A stretch of DNA of 64,000 nt, from NCBI GenBank assembly GCA_015523725.1, contig WAJV01000107.1:959-64958 (forward strand). The letters are read 5' to 3'. Under the pieces are notes generated by a model. The model had not been told where the DNA came from. It ran no database searches and saw only the letters and a list, made by a program, of their open reading frames with translations. Of this stretch, positions 6,784-40,500 are shown in pieces. Positions within the stretch are counted from its first letter, which is position 1. Each line of letters opens with the position of its first letter. Source of the stretch: Candidatus Geothermarchaeota archaeon (lineage in GTDB: Archaea > Thermoproteota > Nitrososphaeria > Geothermarchaeales > JDFR-13). The position numbers were made by a program, and so were the translations under genes.

Positions 6784-8190
6784 CTAGGAAACAGGTTTAG
6801 CTCTATAATAATATTTCTCCAAAATCTCATCCTTAACCCTAACCAGCTCTTCCTCAGGCAATGTAGATAATACCTCCCAAGCCAAGTCAAGCGTCTCCTC
6901 AATCGTCCTATTCTCATACTCACCTTGATTAATAAACTTCCTCTCAAATATATCGGCGAAACGCAGGAAGAGCCTCTCCCTATCACTCAAACCCATCTCA
7001 CCGACGATCCTAGCCAAATCCCTAGCCTTGAGACCCCTAGAATATGCATCATACAACTGATCCGATACATCCTTATGGTCCTCCCTAGTCTTCCCAGGCC
7101 CCACACCACTCCTCATTAACCTACTGAGACTGGGAAGAACATTAATTGGCGGATAAATGCCCCTAGAATCCAACTCCTTGCTCAATATAATCTGGCCCTC
7201 AGTAATATATCCCGTCAAGTCTGGAATAGGATGTCTCTTATCACCACCCGGCATCGTCAAGATAGGCATCTGCGTCAAAGACCCCGGCCTACCCCTAACA
7301 ATACCAGCCCTCTCATAAATAGTAGCCAAGTCACTATACATATAACCAGGATAACCACCCCTACCCGGAACCTCCTCCCTAGCAGCACTAACCTCCCTAA
7401 GAGCCTCACAATAATTAGTCATATCAGTTAATATAGTTAGAACATGATAACCCAAGTCGAATGCAAGATACTCCGCAATAGTTAATGCAATCCGGGGGGT
7501 TACAAGCCTCTCGATAGCAGGGTCATCAGCCAAATTAAGAACAACCACAGACCTCTCGATAGCACCCGACTCCCTAAACGACTCAATAAAGAAACGGGCC
7601 TCATCATTCTTCAAACCCATCGCGGCAAAAACTATCGCGAACTCCTCCTCCTCACCCAATACAGTCGCCTGCCTAGCAATCTGGGCAGCGACCCTATTAT
7701 GAGGAAGACCAGACTCACTAAATATCGGCAGCTTCTGTCCCCTAATCAAACTCAACATACCATCAATAGCTGATATACCAGTCTGGATAAAGTTATTAGG
7801 ATGAATCCTAGCCCTAGGATTAATCGGCGAACCATTAATATCCCTACGCTCCCTAGACACAATCGGCCCCATACCATCAATAGGCTCAAACCTACCATTA
7901 AACATCCTCCCCAACGCATCATCCGAGACCGGTATCTCGAAAGTAGAGCCGGTGAACCTCACAGCCGTAGCCGTCTCCAAACCCGACTCCTCACCAAAAA
8001 CCTGTACAATAATATATTGGTTACTAACTTCAAGCACTCTACCCATCCTATCGATTCCATCTGGGGCCCTGACTAAAACCACCTCATCATATAAAACATT
8101 GGGTATAGGCTCCAAAACAAGTATAGAACCCCTAACCTCCCTAACACCCTTATGAACAACACCATAAATATCCCTAATATCCAGCGACAT
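6784..8190 (-). CDS. atpB: A/V-type ATP synthase subunit B (regulatory)
   Basis: 468 aa. Degenerate P-loop region and the conserved ...PSLSRLM... segment. Confidence 0.9.
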
Positions 8191-23947: not shown

Positions 23948-25280
23948 AATCCCCCCTCATATCCCAAACAGGACTCCTATCAGTAACCTCACCACTAACA
24001 TTACTAACCATTAATTCATCCAACATCTCCTCACCAAAATTACCCAATATCCAACTAGCCTTAACATAAGCCGTCTCAGACAACATATTACTCAAAGGAA
24101 TTACACCCATACGCTTCAGGAACCTACCAGTATCATAAACATTCATATTAACGCGACCCCATATACACTGAGAAGTCATATATATATGTACTCCTTTCTC
24201 AATAGCCAGCCTAATAACATCATATAAATGCTTCCCAACATGCCCCAATCCACTGCCCTCAACTATAACCGCTCTATAACCCTCATCAATCAATATCCTA
24301 AATAAGCTGGGTGACATACCTGGATAAAATTTTAGTAGAGCAGCTCTATCACTGAATTTACCATAGTAAACAGGCGGCCTATCAGGATCTCTAGCTAGAT
24401 AATTATCAGCCTTATAAACTATATTCCCCTTGGAATCCAACACCAAAACCGGGGGAACGTCAATGGATTGGAAAGCATCTCTACGACTAGTATGATTCTT
24501 CCTCACCCTAGTGCCTCTAAATACACCGATATATTTATCGGATGAGGATATATGCATAGCTACATATACCCCCGCCAAATCCGAATCAACCGCCACCCGA
24601 ATAGCGGAGAGTAGATTTAACGCAGCATCGGAACTCGGCCTATCACTCGACCTCTGGCTTCCAACCAATACAATTGGAATCGGCGGCTCCCTTATGGCGA
24701 AGGATAAGGCTGCAGCGGTATAACCCATCGTATCCGTTCCATGGAGAATAACTATTCCATCATACTTCTTTGAGATAATTCTCTTATATACCTCTGAAGC
24801 AATAGTCTCCCAATCACTCGGCAATAAATGCTCACTATACTTGTTCATAAGGATACTAGTCTCAACCCCAGCTATCCCCCTAGCCTCAGGGATAAAATTT
24901 AGGAGTTCTTCGGCGGAGACCGCGCTCTTAACGGCTCCAGTAACGTAATCAACCTTACTTAATATGGTTCCGCCAATAGATAGAACCAAAACCTTTTTAT
25001 CCCTACTCTCAACAACCTCCTCCTCCAAATACCTCATTAACTCTATTCTCGGCGGCTCAGCCGACTTTATATCCTCAATCCTCTCCACCGATAAACCAAT
25101 ATTATATCCATTATCCAGCTTCAATACGAGAATATTTGGAGATGAATACTCATGTTTAGGCATTATATAGCCAGTATATCGCTTCCCATCACGAGTAACT
25201 ATACTGACATAATCCCCATAGGATAGACCATATCTAGATAAAAAAAACTCTATAATATCTCTACCAGCCAATTTACTCAC
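23931..25280 (-). CDS. gatD: Glu-tRNA(Gln) amidotransferase subunit D (asparaginase-like)
   Basis: 449 aa with an asparaginase fold (…TGGTIAS-like LSIGGTILS and HGTDTM motifs). Confidence 0.9.
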   Translation of the reverse strand: MSKLAGRDIIEFFLSRYGLSYGDYVSIVTRDGKRYTGYIMPKHEYSSPNILVLKLDNGYNIGLSVERIEDIKSAEPPRIELMRYLEEEVVESRDKKVLVLSIGGTILSKVDYVTGAVKSAVSAEELLNFIPEARGIAGVETSILMNKYSEHLLPSDWETIASEVYKRIISKKYDGIVILHGTDTMGYTAAALSFAIREPPIPIVLVGSQRSSDRPSSDAALNLLSAIRVAVDSDLAGVYVAMHISSSDKYIGVFRGTRVRKNHTSRRDAFQSIDVPPVLVLDSKGNIVYKADNYLARDPDRPPVYYGKFSDRAALLKFYPGMSPSLFRILIDEGYRAVIVEGSGLGHVGKHLYDVIRLAIEKGVHIYMTSQCIWGRVNMNVYDTGRFLKRMGVIPLSNMLSETAYVKASWILGNFGEEMLDELMVSNVSGEVTDRSPVWDMRGDYGIEL

Positions 25281-26887
25281 CCCAAATATTTCGAGACGTA
25301 AACACCATCTCTCTTATATCCATGCTTATAATAATACTCCCTAACACCTACACCTGAAATAACGACGATCTTATCACCCCCCTCAGAATCAGCGAGTCTC
25401 TCAGCCTCTTTAAGCAGAAGAGAACCCAGACCAAGGTGCTGCCATGAACCTCTAGTAGGCCTAGAGCCTATCGGTATACTTCTCCCATATACATGGAGCT
25501 CCCTCACTATATACGTCTCCGACTCAATAATCTCGGGGCGCCATGCATATATAGATGGGTGTCTAAGCCTAATGAAACCATATATAACATCATTATCCAT
25601 ATCTTCCGCTGAGATAAAATAATCAACACCGTCATTAACAAAGAATCGTCTAACTACTATCCTCGGCTCACCACCCAAATAAGAATCCTTCAACCACCTT
25701 ATCCCAGCCTCTCTACAACGTATACAGTGACAAGCAATGCCAAGCCTCTTGAAGTCATCTAGAATCACTTGCCTCAAATTAGTTAATCTCACACCGTCGA
25801 CAATTTCTTGGGAAGGAATATCCCTATTAACCCTCATAATCCTATTCCATCTATGAACAAAATTATCCTTGCATAAGCCAATTAATTCCCTAGCGACTAT
25901 ATCAGAGTACGGCTTATACAAACCATTTCTCCATAGATTAATTAAGCCAGTATTCTCCAGCACCAGGGTCGGATAGATCTTTAGATTATCTGGGAAGAAA
26001 TTAGGGGAATTCATCACCATATTAAATGCCTGAATATCTAGCTTCTCATTAACTCCAAGTAATCCAGGCATCAAATGATAGGTAACTTTAAACCCAGCGT
26101 CCTTCAATCTCCTAGTAGCTTCAACCACAGCCCTAATATCATGGCCACGGTGGACCCATCTATAGACATCATCATAAACAGTCTGTACACCCAATTCAAC
26201 CCTAGTCCCACCATGCTCAAGCATCCAGTCAATATCCTCAACCCTAGAGGCGTCGGGCCTAGTCTCAAAAGTTAATCCGACTATACGATACCTACTATAT
26301 TCAGCAGCCAATAACCCCCTATAAAAATCACTTGGATAGAAACCTATGAATGCCTTCAATAACCTACGCATATACCACTCACGATACTCTAGGGGCGTTT
26401 TATTAAAAGTACCTCCCTGAATAATAATCTCAACCTTCGAGACATCATGACCCATCTGCCTCAACTGAGAAATCCTACTAATAACTTGCCGATAAGGATC
26501 AAAATTATTCCTTATTCCCCTCATGGCACTCGGCTCCCTACCCGTATAGGAAATCGGGGATCCAGGGAAGTGGGGGCAATATATGCATCTTCCATGTGGA
26601 CATTCATATGGACGGGTCATAATAGCGATAATAGCGACTCCAGATAAGGTTCTAACAGGCTTCCTCCTAAGATACTCAATAAGATATTTATGGCCTGGTG
26701 AATAACTATTAATATAATTTATTATATCTATATTAGATGGATACTTATTTAATCCATATATCCTGACCGCCTCACGCTTCACCCTATTCAATATATTAAA
26801 CCCAATATTTTCTCCATGGGAGGCCAAGGCATCAACAATATATTTTAATGCCTCTAAATACCTTTCATCAACAACAACTTCATCCAT
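25277..26887 (-). CDS. elp3: Elongator Elp3 homolog (radical SAM + GNAT tRNA-modifying enzyme). The probable true start is the internal ATG, since the longest ORF extends to 26983.
   Basis: rSAM cluster CPHGRCIYCP. C-terminal GNAT. The track ORF adds a 32-aa hydrophobic leader (MEHYNNYVLVFSFWRLL...) that is probably not translated. Confidence 0.8.
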   Translation of the reverse strand: MDEVVVDERYLEALKYIVDALASHGENIGFNILNRVKREAVRIYGLNKYPSNIDIINYINSYSPGHKYLIEYLRRKPVRTLSGVAIIAIMTRPYECPHGRCIYCPHFPGSPISYTGREPSAMRGIRNNFDPYRQVISRISQLRQMGHDVSKVEIIIQGGTFNKTPLEYREWYMRRLLKAFIGFYPSDFYRGLLAAEYSRYRIVGLTFETRPDASRVEDIDWMLEHGGTRVELGVQTVYDDVYRWVHRGHDIRAVVEATRRLKDAGFKVTYHLMPGLLGVNEKLDIQAFNMVMNSPNFFPDNLKIYPTLVLENTGLINLWRNGLYKPYSDIVARELIGLCKDNFVHRWNRIMRVNRDIPSQEIVDGVRLTNLRQVILDDFKRLGIACHCIRCREAGIRWLKDSYLGGEPRIVVRRFFVNDGVDYFISAEDMDNDVIYGFIRLRHPSIYAWRPEIIESETYIVRELHVYGRSIPIGSRPTRGSWQHLGLGSLLLKEAERLADSEGGDKIVVISGVGVREYYYKHGYKRDGVYVSKYLG

Positions 26888-27005
26888 AGACATCATCCAA
26901 TACAAAAAACACATCGATAAATAAATAATAATTAATAGTCTCCAAAAGCTAAACACTAATACATAGTTGTTATAATGCTCCAAAGTATTTGTTACATCAA
27001 AAGAT

Positions 27006-27797
27006 TTAGATTATATTTCTATAATAAGGAAAGTATTCATAAGCATATTTAATAGCGAATATCAGTTCGTCATCGATTAGCCTTAGATTATATATAATAT
27101 TCTTAACTTCACCAATATCCCTACTAAACAGTATCATTAGTCCTGAGTTGCCTCGTGAGAAGTCCCAGACAACCCTCTCAGAAACCTCTCCCCTAATGAT
27201 ATCCAATTTACTAGATATAACCATAAATAGGGTTATTCCACTCCTTGGAATATCGATGATAGGGATTACCTTCATGATCTTGGCCTTAATCAATGCCTTA
27301 ACATGGCGAACAACTGTGTCCCTGGATAATTCAAGCTCTTCAGCAATCTTATAGAGAGGTGTCTCTGGATCCCTACTCAATAAACCCAGTATTCTGCTAT
27401 CAAGCATAGACCTATGCGTAACAATATCTTGATCAGGGATAAACGTTACCAAGACACGCTTATCGATGCCAATCTCCCTAAAATATCTCCTCAATTCATC
27501 AACCGAATCGGCATAAAGCTCATAAATATTCACGCCGTCTATACAACTGAATCTAGCAATAACTCTAGATGAGTCAATCTCACCATCAACAGCGATATAT
27601 CCATTGACAAACCCGAAAAAATTAGGATGAATATATAAGTATGGCTTATTGAGTACACCCTCACTCAGCAATCTCCTCAACCTATAATTAACGAGTTGGG
27701 GGGATAGACCTAATTTATCCGCTATCTCCCTCTGGGTTATAGATCCATTCCTTAATACTAGTATCAAAATCTCCTTATCAACATCATCCATAAACAA
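27006..27797 (-). CDS. HTH transcriptional regulator with two tandem Lrp/AsnC-type HTH modules
   Basis: EILILVLRNGSITQREIADKLGLSPQLVNYRLRRL and a second LGLLSRDPETPLYKIAEELELSRDTVVRHVKAL. Confidence 0.5.
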   Translation of the reverse strand: MFMDDVDKEILILVLRNGSITQREIADKLGLSPQLVNYRLRRLLSEGVLNKPYLYIHPNFFGFVNGYIAVDGEIDSSRVIARFSCIDGVNIYELYADSVDELRRYFREIGIDKRVLVTFIPDQDIVTHRSMLDSRILGLLSRDPETPLYKIAEELELSRDTVVRHVKALIKAKIMKVIPIIDIPRSGITLFMVISSKLDIIRGEVSERVVWDFSRGNSGLMILFSRDIGEVKNIIYNLRLIDDELIFAIKYAYEYFPYYRNII

Positions 27798-27910
27798 TAT
27801 AAATATTGGTTACGGGAATTTAACCTAACGTATTTAATATACTCATTGTATTGATGTAGGATTGTTCAGACTAGAGTTAATCATAATGAAAAAAAGAATT
27901 TTTGGGGGAG

Positions 27911-29365
27911 TTAATTATTAACAATCAATACTCCTCTCAATCCCTGATCCTTATGTCCAGGCACCGTACACCAGAAAACAAATTCCCCGGCGACATCCGC
28001 AACAAAAGTAAGCGTATACTTATCTCCTGGATTGATTGTATCGGTGGTTAAGTTATAACCATCTATAAATAGATTATGGGGTATAGTCCCATTATTAATG
28101 AAAATTATTGTTATTACTTGACCCTTCTCAACAGATATTCTATTTGGGGTGTAAAACCATTCCTGTGCAGAAACTTTAATGGTAATCGATGCATTTGAAC
28201 TATTACCTACTCCAAACTCGGGGACATTACTAAAGGTGGCTCCGCTAATAACATCTTGTTCAAACATGACGTGGATAAATGGCTGTGGCTTACCATTAGG
28301 AAGTATAAATGGAAGATTTAAGGGATGATAAACCGGTCCATTTTTAGTAATCTGTATTGGGAAGACCACTATATGTGTATGATGTAGTTGGCCTGCCGGT
28401 GTATTATCAATATTGAGTGGAAGCTCTTCATCAAGCATTAACCTATAGTTCTTGTCCCTAACGACTTGAGTAGTCATTCCATGAATAACGACGTTTTGCT
28501 CAATAACTTCCCCGTCAACCACGATGTCGCCGAAGGCCCAGAAAGCAGCGTAGGTAAATAATTTAGGCATTAATGGGGAGCCGGTGCCGGTGGTGCCATG
28601 GTGCCATGCATTTAACAAGACTCCTCCACCGGTCTCATAACCTGGTAAGGGAGGCATAAACACATGCTTAACAACTAATTTATAATTGTTACCACTTGGA
28701 TCCGTAAACGTTATATTAGCATTAACTACATCAGATGTATTTATTGGGGGTCCCATAGTATCATATGGAACTTTATCGATGAACTCGATGCTCATAGACC
28801 CGCTCACTATCCTCGCCTTGTCACTGAATAGAGTAGGGACTTTAAGGATATAATCACCCTCTGGTGAGAAGCCCCTCATCTCCTCGGGAGCCGCCACTAA
28901 GAAAGGTAGTTTACGAAGCAATTCTGGAACACTTGAGCCTAGGGGTTGCGGGAGTCTTGAGGATACGTTGATAGCCCACTCCAACCTATCATTCCCGAAC
29001 ATGGGGTTATCGGGGGTCCCGAATACGCTGGGGCTGAGCCTCCTAAACCCTGGCAAAATCCAGTAAACAATCTTCCCTTCTTCCTGGGAGACAGAGACAC
29101 TCCTAACACTTAACTCAGCGACCCTATCACTCAATGACTTAACCTTTGCTCCAAGGGCGTCATTAACACTCTTCAAATTATCTACCTCAGAGCTTAATTG
29201 ATTATTAATGCTCTTCAACTCACCGACCTTAGAACTAATATTATTTAACTGTGGCACCAGATATAGAGCCAGTCCTCCAGCGCCGATAAGAACACCGAAC
29301 ACCAAGACTATAAAATACCTCAAAAAAAGTTTATTATCCGTATTCGACATCATCAAAAACCTCAC
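27911..29365 (-). CDS. membrane-anchored coiled-coil protein with a C-terminal type-1 copper (cupredoxin) domain
   Basis: N-terminal TM, about 55 aa of heptads, a roughly 290-aa unknown domain, and a C-terminal 90 aa with His (PHNLF) ... WCTVPGH (azurin-like C-x-x-P-G-H) ligands. Confidence 0.6.
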   Translation of the reverse strand: MRFLMMSNTDNKLFLRYFIVLVFGVLIGAGGLALYLVPQLNNISSKVGELKSINNQLSSEVDNLKSVNDALGAKVKSLSDRVAELSVRSVSVSQEEGKIVYWILPGFRRLSPSVFGTPDNPMFGNDRLEWAINVSSRLPQPLGSSVPELLRKLPFLVAAPEEMRGFSPEGDYILKVPTLFSDKARIVSGSMSIEFIDKVPYDTMGPPINTSDVVNANITFTDPSGNNYKLVVKHVFMPPLPGYETGGGVLLNAWHHGTTGTGSPLMPKLFTYAAFWAFGDIVVDGEVIEQNVVIHGMTTQVVRDKNYRLMLDEELPLNIDNTPAGQLHHTHIVVFPIQITKNGPVYHPLNLPFILPNGKPQPFIHVMFEQDVISGATFSNVPEFGVGNSSNASITIKVSAQEWFYTPNRISVEKGQVITIIFINNGTIPHNLFIDGYNLTTDTINPGDKYTLTFVADVAGEFVFWCTVPGHKDQGLRGVLIVNN

Positions 29366-29430
29366 AATGTATAGGAATAGATAATGCTGGAATCCAACTA
29401 TACATCTTTATAAAAAAATTTTTGATTAAT

Positions 29431-29513
29431 GTATAGCCATGATGAGAAACTATTTATTTGATTCAATCAATGGGCCCATGCAATTTTTATGACGTATCCT
29501 TTCTCCTGAATAC
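29431..29513 (+). ncRNA. candidate C/D box sRNA (weak)
   Basis: Box C ATGATGA at 29439-45 and box D CTGA at 29506-09, with a flanking GTAT/ATAC terminal stem. Internal degenerate D' TTGA and C' ATGACG. Intergenic between divergent genes. Confidence 0.2.
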
Positions 29514-29611
29514 ATCTTTATATATTTACTCAAAAAATTGTTAATACCACATATCCTAGGAAAATGTCTAACAATAAATATCATATAGACAATTTATTTA
29601 TCCCGTGATAA

Positions 29612-30151
29612 ATGGAGATGAAGTCATTAAATAGGATAAATCTAGAGAATCTGATGAAGACAGTTGAATACATTAAAGAGAATCCGGAGGCGGCTATAAA
29701 AACCACTAGGGTAGAGGGTGAATGGATACTAGATGAAGAAGAGGGTCCACAATTTAAGGCAACCATATCAACCAGTGAGGGAGAGTTTCAACTAGAGGCC
29801 GACCAACCCATCCAACTAGGTGGAAGTGGGGTGAGGCCGAGTCCAATACATTACTGCCTATATGGAGTGGCATCATGTACAGCAGCCACATTAGCCACAA
29901 TAGCGGCTACACAGGGAATAAAACTAAATAAAATGAAGGTATCCATCACGAATAAAATAAACTTCTCGAGACCACTGGGATTGTCAGACGCCCCCACAGT
30001 ACAAGAAATACAACTAGAAATCCAAATAGAAACAGACGCCAACGAAGACAAAATAAAAAACCTAGAACAACTAACAAAAAACAGATGCCCAGCAATATAC
30101 TGCCTAACCAACCCAATCAAAACAACACTAAAAATAAACAAAACAAAATAA
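29612..30151 (+). CDS. OsmC/Ohr family peroxiredoxin-like protein
   Basis: GGSGVRPSPIHYCLYGVASCTAATL two-Cys OsmC signature. Confidence 0.7.
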   Translation: MEMKSLNRINLENLMKTVEYIKENPEAAIKTTRVEGEWILDEEEGPQFKATISTSEGEFQLEADQPIQLGGSGVRPSPIHYCLYGVASCTAATLATIAATQGIKLNKMKVSITNKINFSRPLGLSDAPTVQEIQLEIQIETDANEDKIKNLEQLTKNRCPAIYCLTNPIKTTLKINKTK

Positions 30152-30161
30152 ACAAACCACC

Positions 30162-30326
30162 CTACCTAGGCCGCCACTGACCAGGAGGCCTATTCAACAA
30201 AACCCTCTTCCTATAATTAACCCTATTCCTCCTCCTAGGATTAGTCGGAGCCCTAGGAGAAGGATCAATCTTAGGAGTCAAAGAACGAACCTTTCCTGCT
30301 TTTGTGAGTGAGCCGTGCGTGCCCAT
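30162..30326 (-). CDS. rps30e: 30S ribosomal protein S30e (54 aa, absent from the ORF track because under 60 aa)
   Basis: Hand translation gives MGTHGSLTKAGKVRSLTPKIDPSPRAPTNPRRRNRVNYRKRVLLNRPPGQWRPR, containing the archaeal S30e N-terminal HGSLTKAGKVR..TPK signature. A TTATAAA box and GGTGGGG SD-like sequence lie upstream. Confidence 0.75.
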   Translation of the reverse strand: MGTHGSLTKAGKVRSLTPKIDPSPRAPTNPRRRNRVNYRKRVLLNRPPGQWRPR

Positions 30327-30380
30327 GTGTCCCCACCTTTTCTCTCTGTTTTTAATATTTGCTTCATTGTTTATAAGTTT

Positions 30381-31628
30381 TTACGATAAATTGCCGAGAA
30401 GAGGGAGAGGGGGGTAGTATCTCAGTAGGCTTAGTCCATACTCTCCTTTGATCCATCTTTGTGACCTCTGTTTAACATGGCTTCTATATTTCCTATAAAT
30501 TTTATGCTTTTCTCTAACATCGAATTTATTAGATAGTATTAGATGTTTTAGAAATACCTTCTCTGGGTGTTTTAGCATTAACTGCCTTAGAAGCCATCTT
30601 ACTTCACTTTTTCTTCTTATCTGTATTTGATAGCACTTGGTTCTTTTATTGAACCTTATTATTGGATTCAGCCCTAATTTTATAAACTCGTTTTTGACAA
30701 TATCTATGAGATATTTTTTACTATTTGTTATCGTTAATATATATTCTCCCTTTTTTGAAATCATTATACTTCCATCTGCATCCATTAACCCTGCTAAGAA
30801 ATTTATGAAATAATTATTAACAGCCCACTCAATCCATCGTCTTCTTCCTCTTCTTTTTACTAAATAGTCATATGGCGGCATTGCTATTCTTACTTCAGTC
30901 TCATAAATCTCTCGTAACTGTTTTCTATATTTTCTCATTCGCTTTGCAAATCTTAGATTATAAGGAAAATTCTTGAATATCTTTTTTATTAGCCCTAGAT
31001 ATGTTATATGCGTCGTTGTCAATTTAAGCTCATAGTAGTTGACGTGCTTATTTATCCCTATGTCATCTAGCAACCCAATTAAATACGCCTTTAATTCATC
31101 ATTAAGCTCTAAGGCGGTATTGAAGTCATAGTGATTCTTTGTGTGATGTACCACTAGATTATGCCTTTTCTTTAAGTTATATACAACTTCGGCCGTTATA
31201 TGATATTTCTTAACAATTTCTTTTGTAGACTTTCCTTGTAATATCTCTCTAATGATTTCTTTTTTATTATAATTGTATAGCTTTCTTTTCCTTTTGATCC
31301 TTAGCTTTTTCGCTTTGTATGGCTTTCTTATTCCTTGTATCCAGTTTTTCAATGTTCTCAATGGAATATCCGGATATCTTTCCTTTATCTCCTTCAGTTT
31401 TAATCCTTGGTTCCAAAGTTTTATTATTTCGTAGTATATTTCTGGTTCATAGCTTTTCTTGTATCTTTTTACTTCTTTCTTCTCAGCTCCTTTAGGTTTC
31501 TTTCCATGATAGAACCAGCCTCTTAATGTATCGTATTTCACTCCCAGCGCTTTCGCTATCTCCTTGATTCGATATCCCTTGTTCCTTAGTTCAATAGCTT
31601 TATAGTATGTCTCTGGGTCATACACCAA
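30381..31628 (-). CDS. free-standing LAGLIDADG homing-endonuclease-like protein with three N-terminal HTH repeats
   Basis: Repeated YYKAIELRNKGYRIKEIAK / YYEIIKLWNQGLKLKEIKE / IIREILQGKSTKEIVKK HTH units. LIGLLDDIG and LAGLMDADGS dodecapeptide motifs. Confidence 0.65.
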   Translation of the reverse strand: MVYDPETYYKAIELRNKGYRIKEIAKALGVKYDTLRGWFYHGKKPKGAEKKEVKRYKKSYEPEIYYEIIKLWNQGLKLKEIKERYPDIPLRTLKNWIQGIRKPYKAKKLRIKRKRKLYNYNKKEIIREILQGKSTKEIVKKYHITAEVVYNLKKRHNLVVHHTKNHYDFNTALELNDELKAYLIGLLDDIGINKHVNYYELKLTTTHITYLGLIKKIFKNFPYNLRFAKRMRKYRKQLREIYETEVRIAMPPYDYLVKRRGRRRWIEWAVNNYFINFLAGLMDADGSIMISKKGEYILTITNSKKYLIDIVKNEFIKLGLNPIIRFNKRTKCYQIQIRRKSEVRWLLRQLMLKHPEKVFLKHLILSNKFDVREKHKIYRKYRSHVKQRSQRWIKGEYGLSLLRYYPPLPLLGNLS

Positions 31629-32000
31629 TTCCCATCCCTCCAGTCTTTTGGATGCCTATGCCACCGCCTGACTAAAATTATTTCTTGGGCATATTCCCTA
31701 ACGCTTAAATACTTATCTATATTGGGATTGTTTGTTCGATAAACAGGTTGCAGATTTATTTTTAAATAGGTGGGTCGATATATATCTAGGTCTCCGTGTA
31801 CACCTAATGCGAAGATTTTTTTATCCATGGGGGTTTTACTGGATAATTAGGTTTTAGACTGTGAGTATAATGATTGTTTTGGTGTTGGTTCAATCCTAAA
31901 TTGATTAGTTTCGGGACTTATGATTATTTATATCCATATTTATTAATTTTGTGTAAAGAGTTTTGTTGTTAAATGGTTGGGCTAGGGGCTGTATGACGCC

Positions 32001-33554
32001 ATGCCAGTAATAAAAAAAGTGAATTTCCGGCTTCTAAAAAGCTTCAGCTCCATAATGATGCAGCAAATAACTACATATATAATAACCCTAATAACATTCG
32101 GCGTCATATCGAGAATCCTTAGCCCAACCGAGATGGGTGTATATGGATTACTGGTATCAACCGTCTACCTAATAGGCCTGTCATCCAACTTCGGTATGAA
32201 GAAGGTGGCGATTAGACTAATAGCTGGATCAATGGCACACAATGAAGATAGAGTGGCAAGTGGAATATATTGGAAAACCATATTATTATCCCTACCATCA
32301 ACCATTTTACTCGGAATAGGTGCATCCTACCTATATGATAAACTAGGAATATTCAATGAAGTCAATACATCAAATGGATTTATTCTATTCACACTCCTCC
32401 TAATCCTATTCTCAATCAGGAACACAGTATCATCAGGCCTAGAGGCCCTACACCTATTCCATTACGAAACACTATACTACTCAGTAGGATACACAACCTA
32501 TAGACTATTGATGGTATATTTATTAATAAATGGATATGGAGTAAGTGGAATACTTATATCATGGATAATAGGGGAGGCAATCACCACCTTCTACACAATA
32601 AGAAAATTGATAGATAAATTTCCACCCAGCATAAAAGGATATAGCAGCATAAATATACTAAAAAAAGCCTCACCACTATTCATAACGGATATAATATTAT
32701 CTGCAGCCGAATATGGAGATAGGATAGCCTCCACAATACTTGGACTAGACATAGTAGCATTCTTCTACATAGCATCAGTAGGAGTAATGTTCCTCACAAG
32801 CATATACCAAGCAGTCCAATCAAGCATACTACCCCACCTATCAGAAGAATTCCACATAAACGGATTCAACTCAATAGGAGAAAGCCTACATGACATAAGC
32901 AGATACGTATTCATCTTCATATCACCAATATTTTTACTAGCAGCCGTATTAGCAGAGCCATTCATAATCCTCTTAGCAGGCCCCCAATACATAGCGGCAG
33001 CCCCCATATTCCAAATAATGTGCATAGGCCTATGGCTAGGTCCACTGAACCCCATACTACAAAGCACATTCATAGCAGTAGACAGAAACAATGAACTAAT
33101 GGCCACAATACTATTAGCAACAATCCTAGACATATTCATAATGATAATACTCTACCCAAAGATAGGTTATTTATCAACAGGACTTGGAAGAGCCCTACTA
33201 GTCATATCAACCAACATAATCTTACTAGCAATAGGAATAAAACTAATAAACATAAAAATTGATTATATAGCATACGGTAAATCAGCTATATCAGCCGGAA
33301 TAAGTGCAGCAGCGGGACTAATCCTATGGAACTATATCCATAGAATAGACCTACTACCCATATACGTAATAGCACCAACAATAATCTACCTACTAATGAT
33401 TAGATTACTCAGGTTCATAAAACCAGAGGAAGTAGCATCCCTATACCTAAGCCTACCAAAACATAGATACGTAACCCGCGGCATAAAAATCGTATGCATG
33501 TTAACCGGCATAGATATAAATACAGTATTAAAAATAGTCTCTAAATATAAGTAG
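32001..33554 (+). CDS. MOP/Wzx-type oligosaccharide (polysaccharide biosynthesis) flippase
   Basis: 517 aa with about 14 TM helices. Overall MOP-family organisation. Confidence 0.5.
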   Translation: MPVIKKVNFRLLKSFSSIMMQQITTYIITLITFGVISRILSPTEMGVYGLLVSTVYLIGLSSNFGMKKVAIRLIAGSMAHNEDRVASGIYWKTILLSLPSTILLGIGASYLYDKLGIFNEVNTSNGFILFTLLLILFSIRNTVSSGLEALHLFHYETLYYSVGYTTYRLLMVYLLINGYGVSGILISWIIGEAITTFYTIRKLIDKFPPSIKGYSSINILKKASPLFITDIILSAAEYGDRIASTILGLDIVAFFYIASVGVMFLTSIYQAVQSSILPHLSEEFHINGFNSIGESLHDISRYVFIFISPIFLLAAVLAEPFIILLAGPQYIAAAPIFQIMCIGLWLGPLNPILQSTFIAVDRNNELMATILLATILDIFIMIILYPKIGYLSTGLGRALLVISTNIILLAIGIKLINIKIDYIAYGKSAISAGISAAAGLILWNYIHRIDLLPIYVIAPTIIYLLMIRLLRFIKPEEVASLYLSLPKHRYVTRGIKIVCMLTGIDINTVLKIVSKYK

Positions 33555-33625
33555 AGAAACAATAATAAACTATGTTTATCTAATGGAAAATAGATTTTTA
33601 TATTATGTATATTGGGGGATAAATT

Positions 33626-34771
33626 ATGAGAATATACTTAACTCCAATAGGCCTACTACTAAAAAATAGAGAAACAAGATTCATAAGCTTCGGGAATAAT
33701 GTAGATGAAATGGCTAAGGCACTATATGAAATCCATAGAGGAACATATAAACTACCAAATAAAATAAGGAAATTAATCAAGGATAAAGAAATAATGGTTG
33801 ACTCACCACAACTAAGAGACATAATAAGGAAAAACATGGAGACAACCAAGATAAAACCAATTAAACAATTTGAAGACCCAACCGAACACATCCAAAAAAT
33901 ATTGAATATGGATAAACAAGAGATCAACAACCTCTACAAAGAAGTAATGACTAAATACACAGAACTAAAACTAAGAGAAGAATTATCTAATAAAGACCTC
34001 CTAATAATCCAAGCAATAAATGCATATGACGAATATACCGAGATGATTAACATAATATACGAGAGATTAAGAGAATGGTATGGAATATATTTCCCGGAAC
34101 TATCAAAAATAGTTAAGAAGATAGACAGCTACGCCAATCTAATAGCATCCATAGGCTACAAAGAAAAATTCAGTGAAAAAGAATTATCAAAATTCGGATA
34201 CTCGAAGAACAGGATATTGGAAATAATTGAAGCGGCAAAAGAAAGCAGTGGAGCAGAATTAAATAAAAACGAACTAACCATCATAATGCAGCAAGCCGAA
34301 TTACTAAAAACCATGATTAAGGAGAGAGAGAACATTGAGGAGCACATAACAACACTAGTTGAGGAAGTAGCACCAAACACAGCAGCCATAATAGGACCAA
34401 AATTAACCGCACGCCTAATAGCTAAAGCAGGAAGCCTTAGAAAACTAGCCATGTTCCCAGCCAGCACCATACAACTGCTAGGAGCGGAAAAAGCACTATT
34501 CATAGCCCTAAGAAAAGGAGGTAAACCACCCAAACACGGCATAATATTCCAACACCCATATATAAACCAATCACCAAAGAGTGTTAGAGGAAAAATAGCT
34601 AGATTACTAGCTGGAAAAATAGCAATAGCGGTGAGAACAGATGTATTCGGAGGAGAATACATAGGAGACAAACTTGCGGAGGAAGTAAGAAAAAAAGTTG
34701 AAGAAATAAGGAAAAAAGCCCCCAAGAAAAAAGTAGCTAAGAAAAAAAGGAGGAGAGGGAGATGGAGATAG
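33626..34771 (+). CDS. nop5: C/D box snoRNP protein Nop5 (Nop56/58)
   Basis: Nop domain ...AEKALFIALRKGGKPPKHGIIFQHP... and a C-terminal KKE/R tail. Directly upstream of fibrillarin. Confidence 0.85.
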   Translation: MRIYLTPIGLLLKNRETRFISFGNNVDEMAKALYEIHRGTYKLPNKIRKLIKDKEIMVDSPQLRDIIRKNMETTKIKPIKQFEDPTEHIQKILNMDKQEINNLYKEVMTKYTELKLREELSNKDLLIIQAINAYDEYTEMINIIYERLREWYGIYFPELSKIVKKIDSYANLIASIGYKEKFSEKELSKFGYSKNRILEIIEAAKESSGAELNKNELTIIMQQAELLKTMIKERENIEEHITTLVEEVAPNTAAIIGPKLTARLIAKAGSLRKLAMFPASTIQLLGAEKALFIALRKGGKPPKHGIIFQHPYINQSPKSVRGKIARLLAGKIAIAVRTDVFGGEYIGDKLAEEVRKKVEEIRKKAPKKKVAKKKRRRGRWR

Positions 34772-35457
34772 AAAAAATGGATATAAAAAATACATACCTA
34801 ATAAAGATAAATGATAAGAAATACCTAGCCACCAAAAACCTAACCCCAGGAATAACCTATTATAAAGAAAGACTATTCAAAACAAAATACGGCGAACTAA
34901 GAGAATGGATTCCCTACAAAAGTAAATTATCAGCCGCCTACCTAAAAAAGATGGATATAAAAATACTAAATAGCGCAAGGAAAATCCTATACCTAGGAAT
35001 GTCAACAGGAACAACCGTAAGCCATATATCAGACATAATCGAAGAAGAAGGCATAATTTATGGAGTTGAAGTCGCCCCAAGAGTCATGCTTGAATACATA
35101 AACAGAGTGGCCAAACACCGAGACAACATAATACCATTATTCTATGATGCAAGAATACCAGAACAATACAAATACGTAATCCATGGATACGTGGACATGG
35201 TCTATTGTGACGTAGCCCAACCAGATCAAACAGAGATAGCAATAAACAACTCAAAAATATATCTAAAAAAAGGTGGAGAATTATTCCTAGCCATTAAAGC
35301 AAGAAGCATAGATGCATCAAGGGAGCCTAAGGAAATATATCAAGAAGAACTGAACAAACTTAAAAACAACGGATTCAAAATATTAGAAATAGTAGACTTA
35401 GCACCATATGAAAAAGACCATGCAATGGTCAGAGCCAAGAAAATTAGTTCAATCTAA
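34762..35457 (+). CDS. flpA: fibrillarin rRNA/tRNA 2'-O-methyltransferase
   Basis: SAM motif ILYLGMSTGTTVSHISDI. 231 aa. Coupled to nop5 by a 10-nt overlap. Confidence 0.9.
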   Translation: MEIEKMDIKNTYLIKINDKKYLATKNLTPGITYYKERLFKTKYGELREWIPYKSKLSAAYLKKMDIKILNSARKILYLGMSTGTTVSHISDIIEEEGIIYGVEVAPRVMLEYINRVAKHRDNIIPLFYDARIPEQYKYVIHGYVDMVYCDVAQPDQTEIAINNSKIYLKKGGELFLAIKARSIDASREPKEIYQEELNKLKNNGFKILEIVDLAPYEKDHAMVRAKKISSI

Positions 35458-36164
35458 TCCAAATCCCTCCCCGCCAAATAAGGAATCCTATTCACCCTAA
35501 TGACCTGAACATACTTCCTCTCAACCCTTTTAGGCACATCATCAACACCAACATCCCCAAAATCACTCTTTAAATATAAATATGGACCCTTATACTCCTC
35601 ACCAGTCACATAAAAAAAGATATTTCCAGCCAAATCATGATCAGATATAAAAACATTCAAAACATACACACCATTACTTACATCAAACCATATATAGGGT
35701 ATCTCACCCAACTCAAAATATATCGAATTAGCTATAACCAATAGAGACCTTAAATCACTAACCTTAACATACGACAAATTGGAGGCATCACCCAAATCGA
35801 AAACACAATTATGCGGCTCACCAAATAAATAAGAAACAGGGATATATATACCGGACACAATATCTTCATACCCCTCCTCCAAAACCTCAGCCTCATCAAC
35901 CCTATAAGTATATACATTCGGGGGTTTGGAACCTATCACAGTATGTATAAAAGCCAGCTTAGGAGTCTTCACGAAAGAAGGTAGATAAAAACCAATTATA
36001 TAACGCCCCTCACCAGAGGGATAAGAAATCAGACCCGGCTTCTCCCCTTTGACATTAACATGAAGCCTAATCAAATCCAATAAACTATATGCCTCAATAC
36101 CCAATACAGATAAAGTAGCCAACATCAACACCCCAAAACTAAACATATTATAACTATAAGTCAT
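35454..36164 (-). CDS. hypothetical secreted/membrane-anchored protein
   Basis: N-terminal signal/TM MFSFGVLMLATLSVLGIEA. No motif. Confidence 0.35.
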   Translation of the reverse strand: MTYSYNMFSFGVLMLATLSVLGIEAYSLLDLIRLHVNVKGEKPGLISYPSGEGRYIIGFYLPSFVKTPKLAFIHTVIGSKPPNVYTYRVDEAEVLEEGYEDIVSGIYIPVSYLFGEPHNCVFDLGDASNLSYVKVSDLRSLLVIANSIYFELGEIPYIWFDVSNGVYVLNVFISDHDLAGNIFFYVTGEEYKGPYLYLKSDFGDVGVDDVPKRVERKYVQVIRVNRIPYLAGRDLD

Positions 36165-36182
36165 GCAATATTATTTTTTAAG

Positions 36183-36998
36183 ATGAAAGTAAAAAAAGTG
36201 ATGAATACAAGATACTCAATAATAGAGAAGGATGCAAGGATCAAGGAAGCACTTGCAAGGATGGCTAGAGAAAACATAAATAAACTAATAGTAGTAAAAC
36301 ATAAGGGTGATAAAAAGCCATACGGCATAATAACAGAATACGATATATTCTACAGACTATCAAGAACCAAAATTAAGAAATTCGAACCATATAATACATC
36401 AGTAGCAAGCGCCGCAACAACACCCGTTGAAACCGCCAATAAAGAGATGGACCTAAAATTTGTCGCAAAAAACTTCCTAACCAAAGGATACAGCTCAATG
36501 CCCATAGTAGAGAATGATGAAATAATAGGTGTTATAACAAAGGAAGATATAATAAGCCTACTATATAGATATGAAGACCTTATAAACCAGCCAGTTACAC
36601 TATTAACTACACAGATAAAAGGAAAAATCAGGCTCTTTGACAAGCTATCACTCGCACTAAGCAAATTCATGGGAACAGGCTTTAGCAACCTAGTGGTAAT
36701 TGATGATGGAGTGCCTGTAGGCATACTTAAAGTATATGACGTTGCCAAAACCCTATTCACAATTAGAAAAATAAATCCAACCCCCCACTGGGAGAGCGTA
36801 GTAAAGGAAATATATGTAGCTGAAGTTATGAGGAAAGATATAAATATACTTACAAATGAATCCAGCATCAAAGAAGCTCTAAATATTATAATTACCACTA
36901 ACCAACACATCATACCCATAACCGACAATAATAAAGCCGTGGGCCTCATATCTAGAAGCAACATAATAAGATACATGATAAATAATAAACTAATTTAA
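36183..36998 (+). CDS. CBS-domain protein (two CBS pairs)
   Basis: Repeated CBS-like beta-alpha-beta-beta-alpha units (…IIGVITKEDII…, …AVGLISRSNII…). Confidence 0.6.
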   Translation: MKVKKVMNTRYSIIEKDARIKEALARMARENINKLIVVKHKGDKKPYGIITEYDIFYRLSRTKIKKFEPYNTSVASAATTPVETANKEMDLKFVAKNFLTKGYSSMPIVENDEIIGVITKEDIISLLYRYEDLINQPVTLLTTQIKGKIRLFDKLSLALSKFMGTGFSNLVVIDDGVPVGILKVYDVAKTLFTIRKINPTPHWESVVKEIYVAEVMRKDINILTNESSIKEALNIIITTNQHIIPITDNNKAVGLISRSNIIRYMINNKLI

Positions 36999-37012
36999 TG
37001 GTAGGATAGGAT

Positions 37013-37501
37013 ATGGAGACACCTAAATTCATAGCTGACGAGATGAATGGAGATATAGCCAGATGGCTAAGGATAATTGGATTCGACTGCATCTACCTAA
37101 AGGGAGACAAACTAGACGATAAGTTAATTGAAATAGCGGATAAAGAGAATAGAATACTACTCACATCCGATAAAGAACTATTCAAAAAAGCAATATACAG
37201 AGGGGTCGAGACACATTACATCGAGCAAGTAAGATTAGAGGAGAAATTAAAGAAAATAGTTGATAAATATAATCTAAATGAATACATCCCAAAACTCGAA
37301 TATAGATGCCCAATATGCAACCAAAAACTAGTTAAAGCAACAAATATTAAGAAAGTCCCCCCAAAAGTCAAGGAGAAACATAAAATAATCCTATACTGCA
37401 AAAACTGTGACAAATATTACTGGAGAGGAGGCCATTGGAAAAAAATCAATAAAATACTCAAATATGCAGGATTAACAAATACAAGTGTCAATAAATTATA
37501 G
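37013..37501 (+). CDS. Mut7-C/DUF82 PIN-like RNase domain protein with a C-terminal zinc ribbon
   Basis: N-terminus FIADEMNGDIARWLRIIGFDC is characteristic of Mut7-C. CPICN ... CKNC ribbon. Confidence 0.6.
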   Translation: METPKFIADEMNGDIARWLRIIGFDCIYLKGDKLDDKLIEIADKENRILLTSDKELFKKAIYRGVETHYIEQVRLEEKLKKIVDKYNLNEYIPKLEYRCPICNQKLVKATNIKKVPPKVKEKHKIILYCKNCDKYYWRGGHWKKINKILKYAGLTNTSVNKL

Positions 37502-37558
37502 AAGATGAAAGGTACATTTATTTAATATATATCTAAAAGGATACTTATTTAGAGAAGA

Positions 37559-40500
37559 ATGAGAACGTATATCAAAGAGATACGTATAAACAACTACAAA
37601 ACATATAAAAATGCTAGAATAAAATTTCACCCCCAACTCAACATAATAGTTGGTCCAAACGGCTCCGGCAAATCAAACCTCATAGAAGCAATATTATATG
37701 GATTAGGAGAAAGAAGTATGAAGGTATTCAGAGCATATAAATATAAGGACCTCCTCCCAGCAGACTCAAGAAACTCAGCAAAAACACTATCCGTAACAAT
37801 AATAATCGAGGACCAGAATGGAGATGAGCATATCTTCAAAAGAATATATAATGCAAATAACAATACCCATGCATATTACTATAATAGAAAAAGAGTGAGT
37901 AGAGGAGTATACATATCAAAACTAGCCACATTAGGATACAGGGGACTACACCATGTATATATCCCCCAAGGAGGAATAATAAGCAAAGCAAATATAACAT
38001 CAAGAGATTTAAAAGACATCGTAGACGATGCATTAGGAATAAAAGAATTTAATATCAAAAAGCAGGAGGCCCTAGAGAAACTTGAGAAAGCCGAGGCCAA
38101 ACTGGAGAATATAAAGGAAAAACAAGAGATCATGAAGGAAGTAATATATACACTAATGGCTCAAATGATATCATACGATAGAAAGAATAATTTAGATAAG
38201 ATATCAAGAAGAATAAAAGGCTATTTAATAGTCAATGAAAATAAGAAAATAAGGCCCAAACTAACAAAATACACGAAGAAAATAAATGAATTAGAGAATA
38301 TAAAGGAGAAACTAAACAAGAGAATGGAGAAAATAGAGGAGAAAATAACTAAAATCGATGCAAAGATGGGGAAGCTAAGAGAGAAATTAAAGGGCAGAGA
38401 AGAATATCAACAACTACTCAAAGAATATTCAGATGTAAATATCAATATAACTACTACACAAGATAAAATAAAGAGACTTACAGATGACAAAGAGAGATAT
38501 CTAGATGAGATATCCCAGATAGATAAAGATTTAGAAAATATAAAACTCGAAGTAGCTACATACGCAGCCACACTAAAAGAACTAAATCAAGCAAATAGAA
38601 GAAACCAAACAGAGTTAAATAGCCTATATAAAGAGAAAGAAAAACTAGAAAATAAGATAAATAAATTGAGAGAAGAGTTAGACCAAATAATTGAAAAGAA
38701 AGAGAAACTAGAGGAGGAGAAAGAGAATATATTGAAGACGCATATTAAGGAAGAAGCGGAGATAATAGCCATCGAAAAAATAAAAGACTTATATATAGAC
38801 AAGAAGAAGCAGCTAGAAGACAAGAGAAGAAAATATCTAGATACAATAAAAAAATTCGAAGAGAGAATCGAGAAATTAAGCCAAATGAAGACAGAACTAG
38901 ACAATAAACTAAAGAAGCTAAGGAAAGAGAAGGAGAAAAAAGACAATAGATATAGAGAGTTAAAGAGGGAGATAAGAGACGCAGAAAAATTATTAAATAA
39001 AGTAGAGAGATATATTGAGAAACTTAGAAAGGAGGAGGAAATCAGAAACATAGAATTTAAGAATAATGCAGAATACGTACTGAAGATAGCCAAAGATATG
39101 AACTTAAAAGGAGTGTTGGGAATACTATCCAACTTTATAAATGGACCAAAAGAAATCATCAACATCCTAAGAAGATACCTAGGAAGAGAATGGTACAGCA
39201 TCATAGTATATGACGAGGCAACAGCAAAAAAATTATTTAAACTATCGGAGTCAATAAAAAAGAAAGTCGTTATCAAACCAATAACCAAATACATGTCCAA
39301 CGAAGAAAAAATCCATGAAAGAAGTGTGATAAACATATTAAAAATAAAGAACTATAGAAAACTAAAACCACTAGTAAACTCTCTATTTGGGGACTTGATA
39401 ATAACATCAGATCTTGAAGAAGGTATAAAACTCCTAGATGAGGGACATGGAATAATCAGTAGGAAAGGAGAGTTCATAATCACACCAGACAACTGGATAT
39501 ACGAAGGAAGGAAAAGAATGGTCATAGATGAAGACATATCCAAAATAGAAGAAATATACCACCAATTTAAACGAATGATAGACCTAAGGAGAGAAGATCT
39601 AGATAAACTAAATGAAGAAAGAGAGAAACTAATAGACGATATAACAGAAGCCACAAGTGAGTACACCAGACTAAAACAATCTATAGAACTCATAAAGACA
39701 TCAATAGGATACATGAAAGACCTAGAGAAATTCTATCGCAACAAGGTAAAAGAGATAGAGAAAGACCTATCGAAAGAAAAAAATAGAAGAAAGATCGATA
39801 AAACACCATTAGATGAAATTAGAACAATAGAAAATAAAATAAACACTATTTATAAAAAGATGGCGGATTATACAAATGAAATAACCGAAATAAACACAAA
39901 AATAAATAATATAAATAATTTAATTAGTAAAAATAATGCCAATATAGAATTAATAAAAAAATCAATATTGTCGACAAAGGAGAAGAAAGCAAGACTCAAG
40001 AAAAGAAGAAGTGAAGTGAAAACAAGGATAAAAAACATAGATAGGGAGATAAATAATCTAAAAAACACGCTAAAAATATTAGAGAGGAATAAGAAGGAAA
40101 GCGAATCCCAACTCAATAAATTCAATGAAGAAATCAAAGCAATAGAGGATAAACTAGAGAAACTGAATTCACTAAAGAATCAACTATATGGCAAATGGAA
40201 AAAAGCCAATGAAAAACTATCAGACCTAAAGGAAATAGAGACCAGATTAACATACAAAATCAAAACATTGAAGACTAGGCTAATACACAATGAAGACACT
40301 ATATTGAAACTTGGATATACAATAGAGGAACTCTCAAATAAAGAGACAAACATCGAGACTTTAGAGTTACTGCAGCAAGAAGTCGATGAAGAATTAAAAA
40401 GCTTTGAGAAAGAGGCCCACTACCCCTCACCCACAGCCTATATTGAATATAGAGAAAAATATGAGCCATACAAACTATTCACAATAAACCGGGCGAAACT

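Follow-up and report, generated by a model that had tools for sequence, protein, structure and literature searches.

To our knowledge, every LAGLIDADG homing endonuclease so far described from archaea resides in an rRNA intron or an intein. Free-standing endonuclease genes are well studied in phages, where they code for GIY-YIG and HNH enzymes; the seg and mob genes of phage T4 lie in intergenic positions between conserved genes, their products cleave a neighbor some way off, flanking sequence is co-converted, and a promoter for the downstream gene is either brought along or preserved (PMC2988022). The gene analyzed here, designated HL, is located in a stretch of 64,000 nucleotides (nt) of contig WAJV01000107.1 (GenBank assembly GCA_015523725.1, Candidatus Geothermarchaeota archaeon), referred to below as the window. 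HL lies directly upstream of the ribosomal protein gene rps30e and codes for a protein in which three tandem helix-turn-helix (HTH) repeats precede a double LAGLIDADG core. Judged from sequence comparisons, HL is probably, though by no means certainly, a free-standing LAGLIDADG homing endonuclease gene that is, or recently was, mobile among Geothermarchaeota-like archaea by intronless homing.

In its position, HL resembles the free-standing phage endonucleases associated with 'intronless homing' (SegA-G, MobA-E and the cyanophage enzyme F-CphI), since it is intergenic, the inferred cut lies in a neighboring conserved gene and the flank is co-converted. Unlike the phage enzymes, which are of the GIY-YIG, HNH or EndoVII type, HL appears to be a LAGLIDADG enzyme with three HTH repeats, is found on an archaeal chromosome and would have a ribosomal protein gene as its target. 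The monomeric two-domain LAGLIDADG fold and the canonical motif 2 are shared with the intron-encoded I-DmoI and I-Tsp061I and the intein-encoded PI-PfuI, all three of which rank high among the structural matches of HL. These enzymes, however, reside in rRNA introns or inteins and lack an N-terminal HTH array, whereas HL is free-standing. Compared with them, HL is about 230 residues longer, its motif 1 is one residue shorter, and it has an extra C-terminal helix with an H-x-E-K motif.

Three other systems share part of this organization. The LAGLIDADG genes of fungal mitochondrial rps3 (I-OnuI and I-LtrI type) are also associated with a ribosomal protein gene, a piece of which is duplicated or displaced while the host gene stays functional. 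There the insertions are in-frame and the organellar gene itself is nested in a group I intron, whereas HL is a separate gene upstream of rps30e on an archaeal chromosome. WhiA, a bacterial regulator with a degenerate double LAGLIDADG domain and an HTH, combines the same two kinds of domain as HL. Its HTH is C-terminal, the catalytic acidic residues have been lost, and it is vertically conserved across Gram-positive bacteria; HL, in contrast, has three N-terminal HTH repeats, retains the acidic residues as judged by alignment and has a patchy distribution. Finally, the crenarchaeal CRISPR DNA repeat-binding proteins Cbp1 and Cbp2 consist, like the N-terminal half of HL, of tandem imperfect homeodomain-like HTH repeats joined by linkers, but they are small stand-alone proteins without a nuclease domain, whereas the HL repeats are fused to a nuclease scaffold and score below the Cbp1 family cut-off.

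The host is, by its protein sequences, a Geothermarchaeota-like archaeon (Nitrososphaeria) of a hot environment. The ELP3 protein of the window shares 77% identity with its counterpart in a 'Candidatus Geothermarchaeota' metagenome-assembled genome and 64% with the one in Ca. Geothermarchaeum rappei.

Architecture and catalytic residues of HL

The TTG start codon of HL (31628) is preceded at 7-8 nt by GGAGG, which stands 10-11 nt ahead of the alternative GTG; the GTG-start form of 414 amino acids (aa) is the version held in public databases. Every HL orthologue has a GGAGG or GAGGTG ribosome-binding sequence before its start. The original prediction, made from the letters of the window alone, had described a 415-aa open reading frame (ORF) with three HTH repeats and the motifs LIGLLDDIG and LAGLMDADGS, and all of these were present in the ORF list, the Pfam matches and the AlphaFold model. 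The description of the gene as free-standing also held, HL being a separate ORF with its own ribosome-binding site and with no intron, no intein and no Rfam match. At gathering thresholds the window had no Rfam intron or ribozyme family near HL; four related loci searched at E<=1 had none either, and an intron remnant was dropped as a candidate for lack of such a match. The extent originally given (30381-31828) was too long, since the gene, on the minus strand, starts at 31628 and the excess belongs to an overlapping 80-aa ORF, and the approximately 370 nt of non-coding DNA said to follow the gene (372 nt, 31629-32000) in fact lie 5' of it. HL does adjoin rps30e upstream, with a measured gap of 54 nt from the HL stop to the rps30e start. 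There is no second copy or paralogue in the window, where HL is single-copy.

The Pfam matches were HTH_23, in three stretches between residues ~5 and 155, and LAGLIDADG_3, at residues 276-349 (E 3.8e-7, above the curated cut-off). The NCBIfam model HTH_Cbp1 matched weakly across all three repeats (residues 7-154; 17.5 bits versus a cut-off of 140), and a phmmer search of the PDB sequences with HL alone gave no match. A profile of the wider family, however, matched PDB entry 2LVS with E 3.5e-6 over two HTH repeats. This structure is Cbp2 of Hyperthermus butylicus, in which linked homeodomains recognize ~25 bp of CRISPR repeat DNA (PMC3597662). Because the family profile matches this structure, the N-terminal half of HL is best read as a predicted extended, sequence-specific DNA-binding array.

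The AlphaFold model of HL, with a predicted local distance difference test score (pLDDT) of 73, consisted of three small helical bundles, two alpha-beta-beta-alpha-beta-beta-alpha units and two C-terminal helices. The best PDB matches found with Foldseek were bI3 maturase, I-DmoI, I-Tsp061I and I-AniI (probability 1.0, E 3e-9 to 1e-7), the closest folds being I-DmoI and bI3 maturase; WhiA (3hyi, 3hyj) was lower-ranked among the structural matches. Each of the two LAGLIDADG helices headed its own domain, the arrangement of a monomeric double-motif LAGLIDADG enzyme.

A word-indexed search of 5.8 billion proteins returned only five close relatives of HL, with 58-68% identity. The wider family was reached by a hidden Markov model search of 1.84 billion cluster representatives, which gave 2,382 matches at E<1e-3 and 261 at E<1e-10; the best-scoring members that were aligned are 250-450 aa long and combine one to three HTH repeats at the N-terminus with the double LAGLIDADG core and the conserved helix bearing H-x-E-K. 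Among 151 aligned family members, the column of D189 in motif 1 was acidic in 145 (D 140, E 5) and that of D285 in motif 2 in 144 (E 95, D 49), that is, acidic residues are kept at both motif ends in ~95% of the family. The residues of the K-H-P-E-K motif were also widely retained in these 151 sequences (H354 in 130, E356 in 124, K357 in 131), and G280, D283, D285 and G286 were invariant among the HL orthologues. The ratio of nonsynonymous to synonymous substitution rates (dN/dS) was 0.10-0.16 whether calculated for the HTH, the LAGLIDADG or the C-terminal part; dS was saturated. HL is judged from these alignments to be under purifying selection.

The claim that motif 2 keeps its catalytic aspartate was borne out (D285), while the implied loss in motif 1 went too far, D189 being in the acidic column of the family. 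D189 was placed from alignments of 37 and 151 family members with the helix taken one residue shorter; in an ungapped reading of motif 1, the canonical acidic position is Ile, Val or Phe. In the window clade and in P0039, motif 1 is one residue shorter (GLLDD versus GLVxGD), so that D189 is aligned with the catalytic column yet may differ geometrically.

The usual life cycle of a homing endonuclease ends in inactivation and loss, and HL could have entered by homing in the past while the window copy, perhaps with the whole five-member clade, is now catalytically dead and heading for loss. The shortened motif 1 throughout the clade and in P0039 would fit such a history, as would a frameshift in an A-run of the L032 gene, a linked rps30e without ATG in L008, and the absence from the window of the GC-rich upstream block found in other carriers. 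It is nevertheless unlikely that the gene is a relic of this kind, because the ORF is intact, dN/dS is as far below 1 in the LAGLIDADG domains as elsewhere, D189, D285 and H-x-E-K are conserved, and there was a recent acquisition inside one species, described below.

Empty and occupied sites beside rps30e

The HL orthologues belong to five lineages: 1) the window (also L001 and L002), 2) L003 to L006 and L022, 3) L007, 4) L008 and 5) L032. HL is directly upstream of rps30e and on the same strand in all five, while the other neighbors vary, and in all carriers the rps30e TATA box CTTATAAAC directly follows or overlaps the HL stop codon. The content common to the five insertions is limited to HL and the rps30e leader and 5' end. 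The HL orthologue of L032 (7724-8969) is split into ORFs of 100 and 322 aa by an extra A in an A6/A7 run, for which decay, assembly error or slippage are possible. In L008, the rps30e start (3642-3644) is ACG where all other copies have ATG, and the gene was missed by both the ORF lister and the public gene caller; a sequencing error, a non-canonical start and a pseudogene are all possible.

Where HL is missing, the gene order is Nop5 <- PST <- | -> rps30e -> ELP3 -> GatD, PST being a polysaccharide-synthesis gene. At least eight related genomes lack HL at this site, with a PST-rps30e gap of 200-300 nt in all. These include the nearest relatives of the window, L043, L044, L045 and L046 (PST 80-82% identical), in which rps30e and PST are ~200-230 nt apart. 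L043 and L044 are scaffolds of 49-94 kb from the same sampling project as the window. The four loci are otherwise collinear with the window where the contigs reach, L043 and L044 over about 11 kb. L010, L011 and L012 are likewise empty (PST-rps30e 200-300 nt, rps30e-ELP3 ~90-190 nt). A check for presence/absence polymorphism had been proposed with the original prediction, and the outcome was positive, since HL is missing both in the closest relatives and in L012, a strain of the same species as one of the carriers.

Relative to L043, the window has ~1.6 kb extra between the PST promoter block and rps30e, comprising HL and ~290 nt upstream (roughly 30327-31918). Homology to L043, L045 and L046 restarts only at 31922, and the block that these relatives keep on the PST side marks, as judged from the alignments, the left junction of the insertion. 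When window positions 31629-32000 were compared with rps30e and with the upstream regions of the other loci, local alignments were no better than shuffled controls and blastn-short gave chance words only. The 80-aa ORF in this region (31586-31828) had no family match in Pfam, NCBIfam or PHROGs and no homologues outside the window's own assemblies among the fetched loci, the only sequences searched (no public database was included). It is probably not a gene; a faint likeness of its 'GVHGDL' to the S30e N-terminus was judged to be chance.

A gain was found within one species. L012, which is empty, belongs to the same species as the carrier L003/L005, with flanks 96-99% identical at the nucleotide level and ELP3 and GatD 99% identical at the amino acid level. 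In L005, a block of ~5.2 kb replaces the L012-type rps30e TATA box, leader and codons 1-12. Besides HL and a complete copy of rps30e, the block contains a winged helix-turn-helix (wHTH) gene, a non-coding GC-rich region, an 85-aa ORF and a toxin-antitoxin pair (PIN/DUF433). What is left of the resident rps30e is truncated at its 5' end and only 79% identical to the new copy, which shows that the change was a gain by insertion and not a loss in L012. The L003/L005-type arrangement is identical in five independent assemblies and is therefore not an assembly artifact. A perfect 16-bp palindrome, AGTAAGAGCTCTTACT (rps30e codons 12-17), occurs in L005 at 3441-3456, inside the incoming rps30e copy, and at 5404-5419, precisely where the block meets the truncated resident gene. 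The block is not bracketed by terminal repeats; the duplicated rps30e is internal and right-hand, and one 15-nt match (D8, 93%) was present near both ends. Campbell-type integration at an att site in rps30e was rejected for L005, where the full incoming rps30e lies mid-block and the right-hand copy is truncated.

The other genes in these blocks raise the question of whether HL is the agent or a passenger. The PST-rps30e-ELP3 region could be a hot spot of recombination or integration in which HL rides along; the incoming DNA could belong to integrative elements, recombine illegitimately at the 16-bp palindrome or be exchanged between species through homology. A wHTH protein gene, a GC-rich RNA-like region and toxin-antitoxin pairs are indeed present in the L005 and L032 blocks, the L005 junction falls at the palindrome, and the duplication of rps30e in L005 is unpredicted by simple homing. 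In addition, the window has a second, HL-independent insertion of 3.4 kb on the far side of rps30e. Against this, the blocks revealed neither an integrase or transposase nor terminal repeats (Pfam scans of the window insert and of the ORFs examined in L005 and L008; precomputed Pfam annotation for L032), the window insert upstream of rps30e consists of HL alone, HL and the rps30e leader are the sole component common to the five insertions, and the boundaries agree within about 10 nt in two events. A passenger role for HL is decidedly unlikely.

Pairwise identities among HL proteins vary little (58-68%) and show no relation to the host tree. Between L003 and L007, ELP3 is 74% and GatD 71% identical, with HL at only 63%; between the window and L003, HL is 68% identical, with ELP3 at 62%, GatD at 60% and PST at 44%. 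Orthologues in all relatives together with catalytic loss, the pattern that the original prediction had named as speaking against it, were not observed; several relatives are empty and the acidic residues are conserved.

These identities also bear on a domesticated origin, in which HL would be a LAGLIDADG-derived DNA-binding protein similar to WhiA, a non-cutting transcription factor or chromatin protein kept for the benefit of the host. Such a protein could, for example, regulate rps30e from the conserved leader or bind repeats in the manner of Cbp1 and Cbp2. The low dN/dS over the whole of HL, the atypical motif 1, the relation of the N-terminal array to the transcription-associated Cbp1 and Cbp2, and the constant co-orientation with rps30e with a common conserved leader are all consistent with domestication. 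It is very unlikely all the same, given that HL is missing from the nearest relatives and from the same-species strain of one carrier, that its identities depart from the host tree, that acidic residues occupy both catalytic positions family-wide, unlike WhiA, that just five lineages were found among billions of proteins searched, and that one copy is frameshifted (L032). The marks of a WhiA-like domestication, acidic loss and broad vertical conservation, were absent from HL, in which the residues are kept and the distribution is patchy. What was found instead were presence and absence at one site among close relatives (L043 to L046 and L010 to L012 empty) and conversion of the flank (the remnant and the mosaic described below), the pattern of a mobile gene. 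Among the three options offered by the original prediction, the mobile homing endonuclease gene is thus favored and the domesticated regulator disfavored.

Mosaic structure of rps30e and the candidate target

The rps30e coding sequences of the carriers showed no clear grouping (protein identities 72-94%) because the gene is too short and conserved, and only a segment-wise analysis was informative. The 55-nt leader of the window matched that of L005/L032 at 45-46 of 55 positions, L007 at 44 and L008, whose host clade is unknown, at 41, but that of its own HL-less clade (L043, L045, L046) at only 30-32. Codons 1-12 behaved similarly, with 31-32 of 36 positions identical to L005/L032 versus 23-28 of 36 for the window's own clade. 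In codons 22-54 the relationship was reversed: 67-69 of 99 positions matched L005/L032 and 74-82 of 99 the own clade (81-82 for L043 and L046). The 3' part of the window rps30e also has the residues IDPSP and GQWRP, which are specific to its own clade. The informative sites along the gene read AAAAAAAAA BBBBB AAA B... (A, cassette-type; B, native-type), where 'cassette type' denotes the form common to the HL loci. The mosaic was significant, with Fisher p 1e-5 to 2e-3, in six of the 11 pairings tested, those of L005/L032 versus L043/L046 (four of a set of nine) and versus L008 (both pairings of a second set). HL-less members of the window clade tested alike had no 5' run of A (p 0.08-1).

The boundary of the mosaic was compared with the junction in L005. 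The L005 remnant agrees with the incoming copy throughout its first 23 nt (codons 13-20) and is native from nt ~59 onward. In the window rps30e, the last cassette-type sites are at nt 50-62 and the sequence is native-type by nt 68. Two independent acquisitions in different host clades thus appear from these alignments to switch from donor to native sequence within about 10 nt of one another. Free-standing endonucleases that cleave a neighboring gene co-convert the DNA between the cut and their own gene. The switches at rps30e nt ~59-68 in two events, with the leader and 5' codons cassette-type, are consistent with such a tract beside a putative cut site.

Codons 17-22 of rps30e, next to this switch, are the best candidate for the target, with the carriers having a putatively immune variant. 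They read ACT CCT AAG ATT GAT CC in 5/5 HL-linked genes, while the native alleles of both recipient lineages have AAG ATA GAC or ATT GAC. No second good copy of the target-like 17-mer was found in the window.

Table 1. Coordinates of HL, rps30e and associated features (window positions unless a locus is named)
Feature	Coordinates	Strand	Remarks
HL gene	30381..31628	minus	415 aa from TTG; 414 aa from alternative GTG at 31625
Three tandem homeodomain-like HTH repeats	31149..31619	minus	residues ~4-50, 60-108, 118-160
LAGLIDADG domain 1	30855..31100	minus	residues ~177-258; motif 1 LIGLLDDIG, residues 183-191, 31056-31082
LAGLIDADG domain 2	30573..30845	minus	residues ~262-352; motif 2 LAGLMDADGS, residues 278-287, 30768-30797, canonical D285
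C-terminal helices	30429..30572	minus	K-H-P-E-K motif (H354, E356, K357), from family alignment
HL-rps30e spacer	30327..30380	minus	TATA box CTTATAAAC at 30369-30377, leader, GGTG ribosome-binding site; cassette type
rps30e	30162-30326	minus	Pfam Ribosomal_S30, NCBIfam PRK09336
rps30e mosaic	30162..30326	minus	codons 1-12 and nt 50-62 cassette-type; codons 22-54 not (like HL-less relatives and L008)
Candidate target region (putative immune allele)	30262..30278	minus	ACTCCTAAGATTGATCC, rps30e codons 17-22, beside donor-to-native switch
Insert-specific upstream region, ~290 nt	31629..31918	minus	presumed HL promoter and 5' untranslated region; includes 80-aa ORF
Native intergenic DNA, PST side	31919..32000	.	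divergent promoter block AACTCTTTACACAAAA...ATATAAATAATC kept in empty-site relatives
Collinear with L043 (blastn)	22069-26794		L043 2683-7403
Collinear with L043 (blastn)	30162-30326		L043 7613-7780
Collinear with L043 (blastn)	31922-37998		L043 7911-13984
Second insertion versus L043, ~3.4 kb	26795-30161		between rps30e and ELP3
AsnC/MarR-type regulator	27006-27797		in 3.4-kb insertion
Cupredoxin-domain protein	27911-29365		in 3.4-kb insertion
OsmC	29612-30151		in 3.4-kb insertion
GC-rich block, L005	1455-2100		50-59% GC vs 25-35% background (all three blocks)
GC-rich block, L032	~7200-7720
GC-rich block, L008	~1930-2335

Proposed homing, cargo and the wider family

If HL is a homing endonuclease, its two-domain LAGLIDADG core would make a site-specific break in HL-less alleles, with the three Cbp-like HTH repeats extending or anchoring DNA recognition. 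The break would lie within the first ~20 codons of rps30e, most likely in codons 17-22, and repair from an HL-carrying chromosome would install HL and co-convert the rps30e promoter, leader and 5' codons. HL, ~55 nt upstream of the rps30e start, would be roughly 90-120 nt from the proposed cut, and the synonymous differences at the proposed site would make the HL-linked rps30e alleles immune. The scheme takes HL to be catalytically active and HL itself to drive the transfers.

Several points weigh against this interpretation, 1) motif 1 is non-canonical (GLLDDIG) with a shortened Gly-to-Asp spacing, so D189 is possibly misplaced and HL may be a nickase or inactive, 2) the mosaic rests on a gene of 162 nt with ~40 informative sites, and the segment limits were chosen after the L005 junction had been seen, 3) mosaic pairings using L045 or L007 were not significant, 4) the 3' part of the window rps30e is as near to that of L008, a carrier of unknown host clade, as to those of the HL-less relatives, 5) L010 has the core of the carriers, CCTAAGATTGATCC, yet no HL, so that the synonymous differences do not cleanly split carriers from non-carriers, 6) with its second rps30e and additional genes, the L005 product is not that of clean homing and calls for an illegitimate or two-step event and 7) a regulator of benefit to the host would likewise account for the strong purifying selection and the strict co-orientation with rps30e.

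A tentative extension of the homing scheme, possible rather than probable, is that HL acts as the engine of a chromosomal 'homing island' around an essential gene, installing itself together with an immune rps30e 5' allele. Repeated breaks would make the rps30e flank a site of cargo capture: in the window, the genes captured would be those of OsmC, the cupredoxin protein and the AsnC-type regulator, and in L005 and L032 the toxin-antitoxin pairs. The island of some lineages would also include a GC-rich structured RNA of 450-650 nt just upstream of HL.

The toxin-antitoxin pairs of L005 and L032 are at the place equivalent to the 3.4-kb insertion of the window, so that variation downstream of rps30e is seen mainly among carriers of HL. 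A conserved protein of 309-312 aa, 62% identical between the two loci, accompanies HL in L005 (446-1384) and L032 (6214-7143) and not in the window; it has a weak HxlR-type winged-helix N-terminus and otherwise belongs to no family. Three of the five carrier lineages, not including that of the window, have a GC-rich non-coding block of 450-650 nt immediately 5' of HL. Those of L005 and L032 can be aligned in part, and both have a hairpin, CCCCTCACCCCC...GGGGGTGAGGGG, directly ahead of the ribosome-binding site. Fold prediction gave a z of -4.4, and there was no Rfam match at E<=1; the block may be a structured RNA or a long 5' leader. Elsewhere in the window, Rfam identified a 93-nt tRNA (59532-59624, 51.5 bits) that ARAGORN did not report, presumably with an archaeal intron inside.

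More distant family members were examined for their neighbors. In three of the four with usable flanks, L023, L024 (5623-8170) and L033 (527-3625), the gene is tail-to-tail with rtcB (tRNA-splicing ligase) and overlaps its 3' end by 20-70 nt; the rtcB of L033 itself holds a LAGLIDADG intein. L025 has the same tail-to-tail geometry with a neighbor whose product starts with a PHP-like motif and has only a weak UPF0758_N match in Pfam, and the distant member P0101 is placed after a Rad3-type helicase gene. By analogy, adjacency to rtcB or a helicase gene would be the kind of site that free-standing endonuclease genes favor, beside conserved information-processing genes. Scans of larger sequence sets added little. 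A scan of genome contigs with the HL alignment gave 101 pattern matches, 0 of which were confirmed (the carriers are not species representatives in that set), and a metagenome scan gained only a duplicate of L005 and distant LAGLIDADG proteins. The matches in viral contigs were only generic LAGLIDADG and intein matches, so HL does not represent a recognizable viral family.

The window and its relatives provide paired natural alleles, empty and filled, in L012 versus L005 and in L043 versus the window. The wider family, at least 261 representative clusters at E<1e-10, is uncharacterized and is a possible source of thermostable meganucleases with very long target sites. If HL is the homing endonuclease proposed here, archaeal chromosomes would be subject to intronless homing by a LAGLIDADG enzyme, the target would be a ribosomal protein gene, and the fusion of a Cbp-like triple HTH array to a nuclease would be a previously undescribed recognition architecture. 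Should the more tentative homing island also be correct, it would represent a natural gene drive in archaeal populations, based on this new combination of an HTH array and a LAGLIDADG core.

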